In this document: in pieces, positions 1-16,685 of the stretch
How positions within the stretch are numbered: the stretch's first letter is position 1
Layout: each line of letters starts with the position of its first letter
Source: Candidatus Firestoneibacteriota bacterium
Lineage (GTDB): Bacteria; Oederibacteriota; D2-FULL-39-29; JBDRBU01
Assembly (NCBI GenBank): GCA_043822305.1
Contig: JBDRBU010000096.1
Coordinates: 1-17,514, forward strand
Reading direction: 5' to 3'
Length of the DNA stretch: 17,514 nt
The notes under the pieces: model-generated
Database searches by the model: none
Told to the model about the DNA's origin: nothing
What the model saw: only the letters and a program-made list of their open reading frames with translations
Translations under genes and position numbers: made by a program

Positions 1-744
1 TTTTCCATTATTGTCGTAATTTCTAAAATTGACAATTTTTTCTTTTTGTTCATCGGAGAGCAAGTCGGAGCGATAATAGAATACCATGATTTCATTTTTT
101 GCGAACGGCAAAGCATTTTCTCGTTTTACATTTTCATACTCCCTTAAACTCTTGAGGTTTATTTTTGTATCAAAATTAAAACTATTAAATTCTTCTACAT
201 GATTTTTGAATTGTTCCAGTAAATCGTCCCTGTGTGCCAGAAAAAGAATATCGTTTTTTGGTATTTCTTTTTCGTTTATGAGCTGTCCCAAGAGTTCAAT
301 CAGTTTAACAATAATCAATGTCTTTCCCGAACCAGTAGCCATCCAAAAACTCATCCGATTGATAAAATGCTCAAAAGAAATTTTGCTGTTTAAAACCGGA
401 TAATCTTTGTCATATTCCAAAAGAAATTTTGCTGTCTTACCATCCTGCTTTTTTTTTAGGTCATAATTAAAATTCTCTTCAAACCCATTTTGCTGATATA
501 ACCTAAAAAATGCTTTTTTACTGATTTTGTTTTCATCTTTTAAATAAGTAAAAGGCAATCTTGTTTCTTCATCTTTGTAGTAACGATAAAGCACTTTGAT
601 AACATTTTGTAAACCTCGTTTTTGAAAATCAAAAAGTTTTTTATCGTGAGAAAAATTCACATAATCAAAACCTTGCCACTTCGCCGGCAAGTTATCAAAA
701 GGAAAATCATCTACGATACTTTGCAAATATAATTTTATAATCAT
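1..744 (-). CDS. res: Type III restriction endonuclease Res subunit (SF2 helicase/ATPase), N-terminal part; runs off the left edge of the window
   Basis: Not in the ORF track; translated by hand from the ATG at 744: MIIKLYLQSIVDDFPFDNLPAKWQGFDY...LFDFQKRGLQN...INRMSFWMATGSGKTLIIVKLI...ILFLAHRDDLLEQF. Contains the Walker A motif MATGSGKT, is open to base 1, overlaps the upstream stop (ATGA) and lies downstream of mod. Confidence 0.88.
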   Translation of the reverse strand, partial: MIIKLYLQSIVDDFPFDNLPAKWQGFDYVNFSHDKKLFDFQKRGLQNVIKVLYRYYKDEETRLPFTYLKDENKISKKAFFRLYQQNGFEENFNYDLKKKQDGKTAKFLLEYDKDYPVLNSKISFEHFINRMSFWMATGSGKTLIIVKLIELLGQLINEKEIPKNDILFLAHRDDLLEQFKNHVEEFNSFNFDTKINLKSLREYENVKRENALPFAKNEIMVFYYRSDLLSDEQKEKIVNFRNYDNNGK

Positions 745-1562
745 TTTTTTAATAAGTTATTAGTTTGTGATTTCAAATAGTTCTCTTTGGAAACAATAGT
801 TCTTTTTAATCTTTTTTCTAATTTTTTTCTTGCTCCGCCAGCGATATCTCCACCAGATTTAGCATCAGATTTTAGTTTTGGTACACCTTGTGAATTCTCT
901 GTGCGATGGATCTCTGTAGTTGCTCTTTCTCCTAACATTGTAAAAATTAATTCAAAATCATCCATATGATCACGGAGATTTTCCCGTTTTAGACCTTTTA
1001 ATTTCTTATATTCGCTCGGTGTTACTCCAAAAGTTGCTTTAGAAATTTCTGCGGTTAAAATTTCATATTCTTTTTGTTCTTTTGCTCCTCGTTTCTGCCA
1101 TTCATCTGTAAGTTCTTCACGAATAGCAATGCCTCGCATTCGTTTCTCAATCCAATCATCTGAATAACCTTTGAGTTTGTAAAGCAATCTGGTTCTTTTA
1201 GTAGCTAATTCCGGATATTCAATTTCCTGCACTCTTTCATATCCCACTTTTGCCAGCCATCTTTTGAATGGCTCGGCTTTTGGGGAAGGAATTGACTGGA
1301 TAATACGAAAAAGACCTTCAGTATTAGCACAGTCTGTCTCATACCTTTTTCCATCTGAAGATTCCAATTTCAGTCCGTGACAAAATGTCACGACCTCACT
1401 TCCTTCTTCCTTCAGTCTTTGTTTCAATTTTCTCCAATATGCTCCAGCATCAGTACTATCAGTAAGAACCTCACATACATCTACAACCGAAAACCACCAT
1501 TCATTGTTATAAATGATTTTTCTGACTTTTTTACCTTTAAATAATGCGATTTTGTTTTCCAT
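741..1562 (-). CDS. Bro-N domain (phage antirepressor-like) DNA-binding protein
   Basis: Motifs WWFSVVDVCEVLT, YWRKLKQRL and TEGLFRIIQSIPSPKAEPFKRWLA are typical of Bro-N proteins. Lies between mod and res. Confidence 0.8.
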   Translation of the reverse strand: MENKIALFKGKKVRKIIYNNEWWFSVVDVCEVLTDSTDAGAYWRKLKQRLKEEGSEVVTFCHGLKLESSDGKRYETDCANTEGLFRIIQSIPSPKAEPFKRWLAKVGYERVQEIEYPELATKRTRLLYKLKGYSDDWIEKRMRGIAIREELTDEWQKRGAKEQKEYEILTAEISKATFGVTPSEYKKLKGLKRENLRDHMDDFELIFTMLGERATTEIHRTENSQGVPKLKSDAKSGGDIAGGARKKLEKRLKRTIVSKENYLKSQTNNLLKK

Positions 1563-1589: not shown

Positions 1590-4109
1590 CTATTCCCACC
1601 AAATCAATGGCTTAATCAGTTTATAATCCAAATCCTTTATATTTATTTTTATTCCATCGGTAAATTCTACTTCGCCATCAGAAACTCTTTTTATCCATTT
1701 TCCAGTAAGATTTGAAAGTGTTTCGGCAATATCTATATCAGGATAAAGTTTTGTTAAATCTACTTTTACTTTGTTGTTTCTATAATCAATCTCCAAAGAT
1801 TTTAGCATTTTTTCGTCTTTCATAAAAACATACTCCTGATATGGAGATTTTGATGGAGATGTTAGAAGATCACTATCTTTATAAGTATCTTTGCAGATAT
1901 TTAACGTTTCCTCATACTGCTCAAGTTCATAGTATTTAAAGAAACCACCGCCTTTGTATTCTTTTACATCTTTTGAAATACCAGATTTATCGTAAAATAA
2001 AACCTTTTTCATTCGCGGTAAAATCACACTGTAAAAATGTTCACCCATTTCCACACCAAGCCATTTTCTGCCAAGTTTATGAGCTACTGCGGTTGTTGTG
2101 CCAGAACCGAGGAAGAAATCAAAAATAATATCTTTTTCATTTGATCCTGTTTTTATTACTCTATCAAGAAGTTTCTCAGCATTTTCAGTTTGAAATCCAG
2201 TAGTTGAAGAATATCCAGAAATATCAGTCCAATTGCTATCAATAGCCATTTCAATATTTTCTAGTTTATAAATCATTCCCCTTTCTAATTTTAAATCTAT
2301 TTTTTCTATTTCATTTTTAGATAATCTCGAAATTAAATTCCCTTTTATATCAACTGCAATTATTTTCTTATCTTCGTATGCTTTATTTATTTTTTCCTGT
2401 TTTTGATTCCAGTGATACCCATTAGGAGAATAAAACTTTACATCGTTTACAAAACACCAATTTTTATTTGCATTATCTTTACTCGATAACATTTTTATCC
2501 ATTTCAACTCCCTATTTTTTACTTTTGTTAAAGGATTAAAAGTTTGATAATTTTTGTTTTTACAATATAAAAATAGACTTTCTGTGGCTGGATTAAACCT
2601 ATTTGGTAAAATGCCTTGGGTATTACCTTTTCTAATAGATATTTCGTTTCTTAAATTATCTTTCTCAAACACATCATCCATTAAACACCTAACAATCCAA
2701 TTCCCGTTGTAATCACACCTTACAAAAATGCTTCCTTTTTTATCTAAAACATCTTTTGCAAGTTTTAATCTGTTTTCCAAAAGTGTTGACCAATTTGCAT
2801 CTTTATAATTTGTACGATATAAAAACTGGTCAGAAGAATCTAAATTAAACGGCGGGTCAATATAAATCGCCTGCACTTTTTCTTTAAATTTTGGCAAAAT
2901 CGTGTTTAATGCCTGATAATTCTCACTTTTTATCAACCAACCGTCTAGTTGATTGTCTAAATCATCAAACAAAGATAAAATTTCAAGTTCCAGCTCTTTA
3001 AAATATTTTGTATCAATTGGTAAATGTTCGTATTCTTTTTTTAGATTTTGAGATTGCTTCACTTCGTTCGCAATGACAGAGGGAGAGAAATTTTTATCTA
3101 CAATCCCCAGTTCTTGCCATTCTTTGATTTGATCTTTTATTCCCTCGGCTTTTAGGATTTTTTTAATCAATGAGATTGCTTCATCGCTTCGCTCCTCGCA
3201 ATGACAGGCGGAGAGAATCCTGTCCAGTGTAATTACATAATTACTGTTTCTCACAAACTTCGGTTTGTTCCAAATTTTCACCAATTCATCTTCAAATTGA
3301 CTGATAAAATCAATAATTTTAAAAGCAATGCTTTTTAAAATTTGTAATTCATTTACTCTATTCGCACTCCATTCTTTAGAACCATCCCAGAAATATTGAT
3401 AACTCCACAGTTTAAACTGTTCCTGCAAGAATGCTTTAGCATTTTTATTGATAAAGAAATCAACTTCACTTTGCTTTTCAAAGACCCTAAAAGCCCTTTC
3501 TAATTGTTCTTCAGTAATGGCAACGCTTTTCTTTTTTAGAGATTTTAAGGTTTCATCTTGTTTAGTTTTTGTCCCTCTTTCGGAATAAGCAACTGCAAAA
3601 ACAATTATCTTATCTTCTTGCACTTTTTCTAGTTCAAAAATTAGAGATCGTTTCTCATTGGCTTTTTTGCTTTCTATTTTTAAAGCATCAAAGTAAAATT
3701 TGAATTCGTCAAACTCAACTGGCATACTTTTAAAAATCCTATCTGTCTTAACATAGTAAAGCATCTGCGTTTTCCAAAAGAGCACAACATCTTTTTCATC
3801 GGTATAAACTTTCTCGTAGATATTGTTATGAAATGGAGTAGAGTTAAAATAGATTGAACCACTTTCGGTAAAATAGCGGCTAAAAAAGGAATAAAGTTTA
3901 TCGAAAAGTTCATTCTTAAACTCATCCCTTGTTTTTTGAGAAGGAATTTTTTCTAAGGATTTCTCAATATCTTCTTGCAATTTTTTGTTTATCTTTTCAT
4001 AATAACCAGATTTTATCCTCATCAATTTGATGAAACCACCTTCACCTTCAATCTTGGCTCCGATAAAAACATCTTGCAGTGCTTTGTAAAACTTTTCTTC
4101 TTTAGTCAT
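1590..4109 (-). CDS. mod: Type III R-M site-specific DNA adenine methyltransferase (beta class)
   Basis: Catalytic IYIDPPFN, then a variable target-recognition region, then SAM-binding DFFLGSGTT (beta-class order). Also GRKWLGVEMG and GGGFFKYYEL. GAGG RBS upstream; res follows downstream. Confidence 0.92.
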   Translation of the reverse strand: MTKEEKFYKALQDVFIGAKIEGEGGFIKLMRIKSGYYEKINKKLQEDIEKSLEKIPSQKTRDEFKNELFDKLYSFFSRYFTESGSIYFNSTPFHNNIYEKVYTDEKDVVLFWKTQMLYYVKTDRIFKSMPVEFDEFKFYFDALKIESKKANEKRSLIFELEKVQEDKIIVFAVAYSERGTKTKQDETLKSLKKKSVAITEEQLERAFRVFEKQSEVDFFINKNAKAFLQEQFKLWSYQYFWDGSKEWSANRVNELQILKSIAFKIIDFISQFEDELVKIWNKPKFVRNSNYVITLDRILSACHCEERSDEAISLIKKILKAEGIKDQIKEWQELGIVDKNFSPSVIANEVKQSQNLKKEYEHLPIDTKYFKELELEILSLFDDLDNQLDGWLIKSENYQALNTILPKFKEKVQAIYIDPPFNLDSSDQFLYRTNYKDANWSTLLENRLKLAKDVLDKKGSIFVRCDYNGNWIVRCLMDDVFEKDNLRNEISIRKGNTQGILPNRFNPATESLFLYCKNKNYQTFNPLTKVKNRELKWIKMLSSKDNANKNWCFVNDVKFYSPNGYHWNQKQEKINKAYEDKKIIAVDIKGNLISRLSKNEIEKIDLKLERGMIYKLENIEMAIDSNWTDISGYSSTTGFQTENAEKLLDRVIKTGSNEKDIIFDFFLGSGTTTAVAHKLGRKWLGVEMGEHFYSVILPRMKKVLFYDKSGISKDVKEYKGGGFFKYYELEQYEETLNICKDTYKDSDLLTSPSKSPYQEYVFMKDEKMLKSLEIDYRNNKVKVDLTKLYPDIDIAETLSNLTGKWIKRVSDGEVEFTDGIKINIKDLDYKLIKPLIWWE
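3049..3078 (-). repeat. GTCATTGCGA...GAAGCAATCTC palindromic repeat in frame within mod (encodes VIANEVKQS)
   Basis: Minus strand reads TGTCATTGCGAACGAAGTGAAGCAATCTCA, matching the intergenic copy at 12447-12476 at 29 of 30 positions. Confidence 0.88.
3171..3206 (-). repeat. GTCATTGCGA...GAAGCAATCTC palindromic repeat in frame within mod (encodes CHCEERSDEAIS)
   Basis: Minus strand reads TGTCATTGCGAGGAGCGAAGCGATGAAGCAATCTCA. Same ends as 3049-3078 and 12447-12476; GC-rich within an AT-rich gene. Confidence 0.88.
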
Positions 4110-5432: not shown

Positions 5433-5744
5433 TTATAACTCCCATTCTTCACAAAATACCTTTTTGAATTCGCGAGCACCATGGATAACCGCAAGTATTT
5501 CAATATTATCGTCTTTTATAATTCTATAAACAATCCTGTAATTTTGGTAAATAACTTCTCTAAATCCATATGTTTCAAGTTCAGACACAATACGACCACA
5601 TTGTGGCATCATCTCAAGTTTTTCAGTTGCTTTGATAAGAGAGATAATAAAACGAGTCGCATATGTTTCCGAATCTTTAGCAATATATTCATGTATTGTT
5701 TGCAAGTGAGTACTTGCTTTTTCTGTCCACTTTATTTTGCCCAT
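5433..5744 (-). CDS. Type II toxin, RelE/ParE superfamily
   Basis: IKWTEKA...IHEYIAKDS...PQCGRIVSE...FREVIYQNYRIVYRI...ILAVIHGAR; start overlaps the 3' end of the antitoxin gene. Confidence 0.9.
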   Translation of the reverse strand: MGKIKWTEKASTHLQTIHEYIAKDSETYATRFIISLIKATEKLEMMPQCGRIVSELETYGFREVIYQNYRIVYRIIKDDNIEILAVIHGAREFKKVFCEEWEL

Positions 5745-12403: not shown

Positions 12404-12535
12404 GTTTGTCATTGTTTATTATTGCTTGTCATTGATTACTATTGCTTGTCATTGCGAACAAAGTGAAGCAATCTCATGTGTAAAAAAATGCTCGATGCAT
12501 TCTTGCCTTCGGCATAATACCGCCTCGCAATGACA
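12404..12535 (+). repeat. 20-bp tandem repeats running into a GTCATTGCGA repeat and its inverted partner
   Basis: TTGTCATTG recurs with a 20-bp period three times. Full copy at 12447-12476, inverted partner CCTCGCAATGACA at 12523-12535, and a TGCC-TTC-GGCA hairpin at 12504-12514. Confidence 0.8.
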
Positions 12536-12588
12536 CCGCAATAACTGTGTTCAGCAAGGATTTGCTTTTCCTTACTTTCCTTACTGCT

Positions 12589-16628: not shown

Positions 16629-16685
16629 GTGTCATTGCGACACAGTCTCAATGACACCACAATACGGCTTTCACTGACTATTTAT
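16629..16685. repeat. Shortened GTCATTGCGA hairpin followed by a MITE-like right end
   Basis: GTGTCATTGCGAC-ACA-GTCTCAATGACAC stem-loop (16629-16657). ACGGCTTTCACTGACTATTTA (16664-16684) is identical to 6258-6278. Confidence 0.75.

Follow-up and report, generated by a model that had tools for sequence, protein, structure and literature searches.

Two TGTC-tagged hairpin units read in frame within a type III mod gene, and variation of the unit body at the same site across phyla

Results

The stretch of DNA analyzed here, hereafter the window, comprises 17,514 nucleotides of contig JBDRBU010000096.1 from a Candidatus Firestoneibacteriota genome (assembly GCA_043822305.1) and carries a type III mod gene at 1590..4109 on the reverse strand. 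The open reading frame (ORF) of 839 aa is intact and encodes an N-terminal domain of ~290 aa, a variable linker (aa ~298-363) and a methyltransferase core, and two units of a short hairpin repeat lie in frame within the linker, both in the sense of mod. Copy A (3171..3206, reverse strand), at what we term site A, is a TGTC-tagged hairpin unit with GC-type arms (ATTGC/GCAAT) that is read as CHCEERSDEAIS. Copy B (3049..3078, reverse strand), at site B, is of the same repeat type, lies 92 bp from copy A and is read as VIANEVKQS. The translation of mod runs ...LDRILSACHCEERSDEAISLIKK... over copy A and ...NFSPSVIANEVKQSQNLKK... over copy B, i.e., the two copies are read in different frames. Their likeness extends ~10 bases further 5': the left junction of copy A (3207..3216, reverse strand; CTCTCCGCCT), which is specific to mod and supplies the codons for LSA and the first base of a Cys codon, closely resembles the left flank of copy B (3079..3088, reverse strand; CTCTCCCTCT). 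GC content is 0.50 in copy A and 0.43 in copy B, versus 0.30 in the mod ORF. A third copy is intergenic (12447..12476, forward strand) and agrees with copy B at all but one of 30 positions. It forms the left unit of an inverted doublet, whose partner (12496..12535, reverse strand) combines an exact left arm with a degenerate right one. The original prediction, made from the letters of the window, had described the paired in-frame copies, their two frames, the open ORF and a match of 29 of 30 positions to the intergenic copy, and in these respects it was accurate. At 12405-12447, three spaced TTGTCATTG words (TTGTCATTGTTTATTATTGCTTGTCATTGATTACTATTGCTTGTCATTGCGA) run into the intergenic unit and resemble duplicated partial left arms.

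The two-arm pattern of the unit matched the window three times and was not found in any of 200 shuffles, and the left arm, allowing up to one mismatch, gave six matches against a shuffle mean of 0.18. In the mod units, an outer stem of 5 bp (ATTGC/GCAAT) encloses an interior of 12-22 nt. The term palindromic, as first applied to these copies, describes them only weakly: the outer stems are short, and the DNA fold energies (-4.0 and -2.2 kcal/mol; z +1.15 and -0.22) were no better than those of shuffled sequences. The intergenic doublet (12441-12545) folds well (z -3.9). When the entire window was searched against Rfam at E ≤ 1, zero matches were returned.

The ORF at 1590-4109 was assigned to the Mod subunit of a type III restriction-modification (R-M) system on account of its N6_N4_Mtase domain, the Bro-N gene downstream and the ResIII-type start of a res gene. 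The Pfam domain (PF01555) covers aa 412-695 (E 2.9e-38), the motif DPPF (418-421) precedes FLGSGTT (666-672), which is of the FxGxG type, and a res helicase-nuclease gene is nearby, as is characteristic of type III Mod. Across an alignment of 102 Mod sequences, D418, P419, P420 and F421 are invariant, as are F666, G668, S669, G670 and T671. The relatives found in the PDB by sequence, 6k0w Mod and the EcoP15I Mod 4zcf, align only from about residue 380 on, and by this alignment the hairpin units lie upstream of the known Mod core. Downstream of mod, the 5' part of res (1..744, reverse strand) has a ResIII helicase motif and belongs to the same R-M system, and a gene for a 273-aa Bro-N domain protein (741-1562, reverse strand) is placed between the two. 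Elsewhere in the window, a ParE-family toxin gene of 103 aa lies at 5433-5744 on the reverse strand (E 2.5e-20).

A superfamily of CGTC-tagged REPs, in which the tag may be CGTC, TGTC or CCTC, was defined by Di Nocera, De Gregorio and Rocco (2013; PMC3733652), with dRS3 and the Rickettsia palindromic elements RPE-4 and RPE-6 among its members. According to the available text of that paper, stems measure 8-9 bp and start with complementary A and T, loops have 4-5 nt, a short unpaired tail follows (consensus CCA), head-to-head dimers predominate, and some copies lie in frame within genes, a few of which are hit twice (e.g., uvrB of R. conorii). The Neisseria Transformation Sequence (NTS), which contains dRS3, has a GTCATT...AATC frame, and Ssn-related motifs (SRMs) occur in many phyla (Chenal et al., 2025; PMC11893778). 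Both mod units begin with a TGTC tag, their stems start A-T-T and are followed by a C, and in these features they match the descriptions; on this basis of sequence they can be placed in the family. We consider it likely, therefore, that both are members of the CGTC/TGTC-tagged hairpin-repeat superfamily (dRS3/NTS/RPE-4/6-type REPs, or SRMs) and ride in mod as passengers. An analogy to Rickettsia palindromic elements had been drawn before, and it is closer than was claimed: as RPE-4 and RPE-6 are listed in the superfamily (PMC3733652), the relation is one of kinship and not of mere likeness. The host here has a free-standing genome of 2.15 Mb (125 contigs, 31.6% GC, 96.8% complete). Rickettsia palindromic elements are said to go back to a description by Ogata et al. 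in 2000; RPE-1 is a longer element.

In the host genome (G000; its contigs are given as C numbers), exact GC-type units (GTCATTGC...GCAATC) were found 20 times versus none in a reversed control, which agrees with the predicted existence of a dispersed genomic repeat. All 20 read GTC-ATTGC...GCAAT-C, so that each holds the bases upstream of the palindrome and the C after it that give an SRM its orientation. The tag is TGTC in both mod units and in the intergenic copy of the window, and CGTC or TGTC in other genomic copies; the inner parts differ among units but remain hairpin-like. A few CC-type units (GTCATTCC...GGAATC) are present, three of them exact, and imperfect units occur as well. At least eight inverted doublets are present, with partners 80-120 bp apart. 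The mod units are singlets in direct orientation, and the tail after their stem is CTCA, where the consensus of 2013 is CCA. Two intergenic copies (G000:C51:34740-34765 and C93:10674-10699) have exactly the 26-nt core of copy B. A general hairpin pattern was matched in five of five genomes of different phyla (30, 213, 31, 127 and 26 matches, versus 1-3 in reversed controls). A generic scan for GTCA plus any 5-nt arm, which is informative only for GC-containing arms, gave 133 matches versus 168 in the reversed control. Cyanobacterial 'small dispersed repeats', an initial candidate, were dropped after a literature search without a relevant result. A second family of short palindromes (GTCATTGCGACACAGTCTCAATGACA, with relatives starting TTCATTGCGACACAG) occurs at 16631-16656 of the window and at ~9 other places in the genome; its members have the left arm of the hairpin unit but are self-closing.

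By eye, ~38 units were counted in the genome, and four of them are translated, in two genes, mod and a Methyltransf_23 gene; among the 25 exact-arm units, three are translated. The Methyltransf_23 gene (345 aa; G000:C85:10088-11125, or L085:289-1326) reads through a hairpin doublet made up of units C85:10903(+) and C85:10967(-), which appear as two insertions, of 10 and 14 aa, that 11 homologues lack; the C-terminus remains in alignment with theirs. Its (+) unit is identical to a unit at C106:2345. Units at C51:15409, C66:9954 and C71:5210 fall within long ORFs but upstream of the likely true starts, and are therefore better read as intergenic. In N. meningitidis, NTS copies inside genes amount to 2%, and translated copies are not discussed in the available part of the paper (PMC11893778).

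The genome also encodes a single-domain GIY-YIG protein of 98 aa (C85:20474-20770; PF01541, E 1.6e-16), whose gene is flanked by inverted CC-type units at C85:20415(+) and C85:20802(-), the arrangement of an Ssn gene between its units. The unit beside it at C85:20778-20802 has an 8-bp stem and a 5-nt loop. Homologues of the protein number at least 8000 at E ≤ 0.001; the 119 that were listed (120 rows with the query) have 93-155 aa, mostly 94-97 aa, share 69-78% identity, and come from Patescibacteria, Omnitrophota, Chloroflexi, cyanobacteria and others. The closest solved structures are UPF0213 GIY-YIG proteins, and neither small GIY-YIG protein of the genome exceeded any family cut-off in NCBIfam. 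The cassette spans G000:C85:20357-20820 (L086) and is bounded by outer flanks, the left motif ending ...ACTGAACATCGTC and the right one, read inward, CTGCTTGTCATT. These motifs have 10 and 9 matches genome-wide, respectively, each including the cassette's own and 2-3 away from hairpin units. They are also found beside gene-less hairpin doublets (e.g., C93:10654-10770 and C48:8726-8866), which look like miniature derivatives of the cassette, comparable to insertion sequences with their MITEs. A second small GIY-YIG gene (~88 aa; G000:C78:38900-39373) directly follows a tRNA-like stretch and a GC-rich hairpin; units of the main type do not flank it. Some hairpin units (C64:19291, C66:9954 and C121:2810) contain the inner stem of this GC-rich hairpin (CCCTG.ACC...GGTACAGGG) as well.

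SsnA, a GIY-YIG nuclease of 94 aa whose gene often lies between NTS units, binds the NTS as single-stranded DNA and cuts a few bases upstream of it, on the NTS strand only (PMC11893778). As far as the available text goes, activity is abolished when the palindrome is changed and the hairpin kept, mutagenesis names the bases just upstream of the palindrome and the C after it, and NTS units around a gene alter the yield of transformation in Neisseria. By analogy, units of the present genome may be cleaved by its own GIY-YIG nuclease.

Inverted doublets could also point to REPs or REPINs of the classical kind, for whose movement a REP-associated tyrosine transposase (RAYT) of the host would be responsible, all the more as six Y1_Tnp matches in the genome exceed the Pfam cut-off and many units form doublets of a REPIN-like kind. 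However, the tag is (C/T)GTC and not the GTAG of REP/REPIN-RAYT systems, none of the six Y1 genes adjoins a TGTC- or CGTC-tagged unit, and the gene that units do flank is the GIY-YIG gene. The survey of 2013 likewise found no dedicated transposase for CGTC REPs, as its available text has it (PMC3733652). A RAYT origin of the mod units is thus very improbable.

Mod homologues (~70% identity) occur in >15 bacterial and archaeal phyla. Measured between the anchors LDRI and PIDTKY, the linker has 34-67 residues (mode 54; delimitable in 93 of 102 homologues). In the alignment, identity to the query is 8% in block 301-310, where the gap fraction is 0.75, and 15-23% in blocks 341-360, compared to 76-99% in neighboring blocks; the peptides thus occupy the two least conserved blocks of a region that is otherwise conserved at 80-99%, in keeping with the proposal that they sit in a tolerant region upstream of DPPF. 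From a protein set of 120 rows, 13 were dropped (no anchors, or fused forms) and 107 with recognizable anchors were scored. Site A is filled in 17 of these and empty in 90 (~84%). It is also filled in five of 42 genome loci that cover the site (L008, L016, L017, L025 and L070) and in 0 of 51 metagenome loci that cover the linker. Three proteins, P0001, P0006 and P0111, have a filled site B, and no two of them share a body there. The alignment to homologues hence bore out the expectation that both peptides would be absent from most relatives.

All filled site A alleles share one frame and start with a junction of the LSxxH type (variants include IFACH and LLARH). Behind it, at least six hairpin bodies were distinguished among the 17 filled proteins (CEERSDEAIS, SERSEES, SRESGNPDS, YRENGNSYS, SEQSEKS and SKSDIAREES). 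In the DNA, the window, L008 and L017 have the junction CT(C/T)TCCGCCT before TGTCATT in common, and that of L016 (ATTTCCGCCT) differs in its first two bases; beyond the junction, hairpin and tail differ. A pattern search with the last 14 bases of junction plus tag found them only in mod in G000-G003, including G001 with its 213 hairpin-pattern matches. Four matches in G004 were rejected as chance; none has a hairpin. P0006, like the window's Mod, fills both sites, and its site A unit residues are identical at 12 of 12 positions versus ~73% identity overall. At site B of the window's Mod, 13 residues are replaced by 13, with no gain in length. Two elements of the original prediction must be revised in this light. 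The description of the repeat as recently mobile does not fit site A, where site, frame and LSxxH-type junction are already present in 17 of 107 homologues from other organisms, and the adding of peptides applies to the 12 extra residues of site A but not to copy B, a like-for-like replacement.

The Mod homologue at L070:2393-2700, from a Dehalococcoidia metagenome-assembled genome, has a GC-type unit at site A (VSGCHCQERSDKAISL), and in its site B region a longer stretch of foreign sequence (…SPLKKGGHSEGMTGYS…) may be a unit in reverse orientation. In P0003, P0053, P0076 and P0119, Mod is ~200 aa longer and fused to a DUF559/very-short-patch-repair-like endonuclease domain (PF04480). None of the public sequencing runs listed contained >0.05 of the sampled words, and no RNA run was among those listed.

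Given LSACH..E.S-type site A peptides in 17 homologues, one might ask whether the peptides are ordinary ancestral Mod sequence that resembles intergenic DNA by chance or through fragments of mod. This is scarcely credible: the unit is present in tens to hundreds of copies in unrelated genomes, far from mod genes; 90 of 107 homologues are without it; a single gene reads it in two frames; its GC content of 0.43-0.50 exceeds that of the gene around it (0.30); and the intergenic copies are not flanked by further sequence derived from mod.

With regard to Mod itself, the units are oriented in the sense of the gene, where the two frames used are both open, and fall in the linker that joins the N-terminal domain to the methyltransferase core. 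As linkers vary from 34 to 67 residues among homologues, 12 extra residues at site A and 13 exchanged ones at site B appear to be tolerated, and since no column that is invariant in 102 sequences has changed, those of DPPF and FxGxG among them, the gene looks intact; the units are presumably neutral for Mod function. Two AlphaFold2 models of Mod were poor (mean pLDDT 60 and 65; pTM 0.33 and 0.40). Both show a low-confidence loop at 301-304 and helices at 305-320 and 343-353, i.e., over much of both peptides, and the placement of the peptides in surface loops, as it had been put, could not be demonstrated. The evidence of tolerance is the alignment, and from models of this quality nothing is concluded on surface exposure.

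Next to the identity of the alleles stands that of their hosts. The general hairpin pattern was matched 30, 213, 31, 127, 26 and 149 times in the six hosts of filled alleles; of 36 hosts of empty alleles, 28 had 0-21 matches and eight had 34-365. At ≥26 matches, six of six filled hosts compare with eight of 36 empty ones (Fisher p 6e-4), for a 'hairpin-rich' threshold set post hoc and genomes that are not phylogenetically independent. A one-sided Mann-Whitney test of filled versus empty hosts gave p 0.0024, or 0.004 without the window's genome. The link is weaker for exact-arm counts (p 0.008; ≥20 in four of six versus six of 36, p 0.02), and G004, among the filled hosts, has few members of the family. 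Filled alleles lie preferentially in hairpin-rich genomes, and the same peptides in genomes lacking the repeat, which would have spoken against an inserted repeat, were not encountered.

The history of site A was followed on two trees. On a whole-protein tree with the linker removed, 15 changes were needed for 17 filled rows, at least 10 of them forced by well-supported branches; shuffles averaged 16 changes, and 124 of 500 were as low. On a tree of the flanks (the N-terminal domain together with 115 residues that follow the linker), 14 changes were needed, two of them forced, and 41 of 500 shuffles were as low. There, the window's Mod falls in a weakly supported group of five, in which three have different bodies and two are empty. 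The Mod family is a mosaic: P0018 has a linker as in P0013 and P0015 but not their position on the whole-protein tree.

Such a scatter of the filled state over both trees, with 15 and 14 changes for 17 rows, is what would be seen if sites A and B were hot spots hit anew by the resident units of each host, with no single ancestral insertion. The body kinds, at least six and mostly of types abundant in the host, fit repeated insertions as well, as do the hairpin-rich hosts of filled alleles and the identity of the copy B core to two intergenic copies of its own genome. In recB, two species of Xanthomonas have different REPs at about one site (PMC3733652). Nevertheless, the ~10-base left junction is common to filled alleles from four phyla and absent both from empty alleles and from all other hairpin copies of those genomes, including the 213 matches in G001, and in L070 the body is of a type rare in its host. 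Moreover, since the family is a mosaic, scatter on a tree can arise from recombination, which takes force from this argument for independent insertions, and we regard them as rather unlikely, though still a serious alternative.

Discussion

Two hairpin units of a tagged repeat family are read as protein in the linker of a type III Mod, at one site behind a junction that homologues from other phyla share. For the history of these sites we put forward, with about an even chance of its being correct, a single old insertion (or a few) whose junction was inherited and whose bodies were later exchanged. A unit would have entered site A in the ancestor of part of a horizontally transferred Mod family, and horizontal transfer of mod would have brought it to the present genome. 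At both sites, the hairpin body would then have been swapped for other variants of the family, with the mod-specific left junction retained. Gene conversion, or re-insertion templated by resident copies, is the likely route, and nuclease cuts made shortly upstream of the unit may have set off the exchange; the conversion mechanism is inferred. The mechanism first suggested for these repeats is thus partly supported, being right in kind and wrong on timing for site A.

Several points, besides the post hoc threshold and the relatedness of the genomes compared, weigh against our view of one old insertion by a member of this superfamily with later exchange of bodies. Both trees fail to separate a single insertion followed by recombination from many insertions. 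The match between body and host is imperfect: among five hosts, the body is of the dominant type in three (G000, G002 and G003), of the second most common type in one (G001), and of a rare type in the host of L070 (G036, with three GC-type versus 135 CC-type units). With an outer stem of 5 bp, the mod units depart from the 8-9-bp stem and 4-5-nt loop of CGTC-tagged REPs. The published degenerate SRM string gave two hits in the genome, none in mod and three in the reversed control; it misses the GC-type unit because it demands pyrimidines at positions that hold GC. Finally, the units that flank the C85 nuclease gene are of the CC type (three exact, versus 20 of the GC type) and recognition by SsnA is sequence-specific (PMC11893778), for which reasons cleavage of the mod units by the C85 enzyme is no more than a possibility.

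Could the units be kept for a function? As nuclease sites on the sense strand, they might limit or steer the uptake and recombination of an R-M gene and so promote the shuffling of modules, e.g., if incoming single strands were broken at the border of the N-terminal domain and the catalytic/target-recognition part. Transformation yield does change when NTS units surround a gene in Neisseria, and SsnA cuts only the NTS strand, as single-stranded DNA (PMC11893778). Both mod units lie on one strand, the sense strand; the whole-protein tree conflicts with the N-terminal/flank tree; and the unit peptide is identical at 12 of 12 residues between P0001 and P0006 where the adjoining linker differs, which points to constraint at the DNA level. 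Such identity is equally expected from recent conversion, however, and the conflict of the trees may lie in the target-recognition region, in which type III mod genes recombine. Most homologues also do without units (90 of 107 proteins and all 51 metagenome loci), and retention for this purpose seems improbable to us. A bolder view, doubtful but worth stating, takes the embedded units as exchangeable cassettes: the fixed junction would mark the cut site, just upstream, of each new host's nuclease, the body would be rewritten from resident copies so that a mod gene in horizontal transfer is re-tagged with the hairpin type of its present host, and the cut site would double as the breakpoint between N-terminal and catalytic modules.

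Returning to the proposal of an old insertion with exchanged bodies, parts of the picture are already in print, namely in-frame copies of the superfamily (PMC3733652) and the link to a nuclease (PMC11893778), both as given in the available texts. Taken alone, the window adds one more selfish or domesticated hairpin repeat that is read through as protein, a phenomenon familiar in this superfamily from the studies of Rickettsia and the survey of 2013. The turnover of bodies at the same site across phyla is the only new angle. In the literature searched, which did not extend to the supplementary tables of PMC3733652 and PMC11893778, we found no account of one orthologous site with many bodies behind a constant junction, nor of a link to hairpin-rich hosts; what comes closest is recB, with its different REPs in two Xanthomonas species (PMC3733652). 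The Mod family offers a natural experiment in this respect, with an orthologous site that is empty or holds at least six variants behind a constant junction, over many phyla. Comparison of site A among Mod genes could show the route by which units turn over, conversion or re-insertion, a point that neither paper settles in its available text. In addition, with the Ssn-type cassette and its gene-less miniature derivatives, whose outer flanks are those of the cassette, such systems are extended to an AT-rich genome outside the groups in print.

Among known systems, that of SRM/NTS and SsnA is alike in the GTC tag before the ATT start of the stem, the C directly after the stem, the orientation of the units, which often form inverted pairs, and a GIY-YIG gene of ~94-98 aa between inverted units (PMC11893778). 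It differs in that the GC-type arms found here, with a GA-rich loop inside and an inner hairpin that varies, fall outside the string of that paper, and in that the present units lie in frame within genes. The CGTC-tagged REPs also form head-to-head dimers and have in-frame intragenic copies, sometimes two per gene (PMC3733652), but their stems of 8-9 bp and loops of 4-5 nt contrast with the 5-bp outer stems and longer, interrupted interiors of the mod units; the hosts here belong to other phyla, and variation at the same site is seen across phyla in a horizontally transferred gene. REP/REPIN-RAYT systems resemble the present one in their short hairpins, inverted doublets and a small gene between its own repeats, but have a GTAG tag and a Y1 transposase where we find (C/T)GTC and a GIY-YIG nuclease. 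Rickettsia palindromic elements, finally, are likewise short palindromic units that lie in frame in working genes and add segments of peptide.

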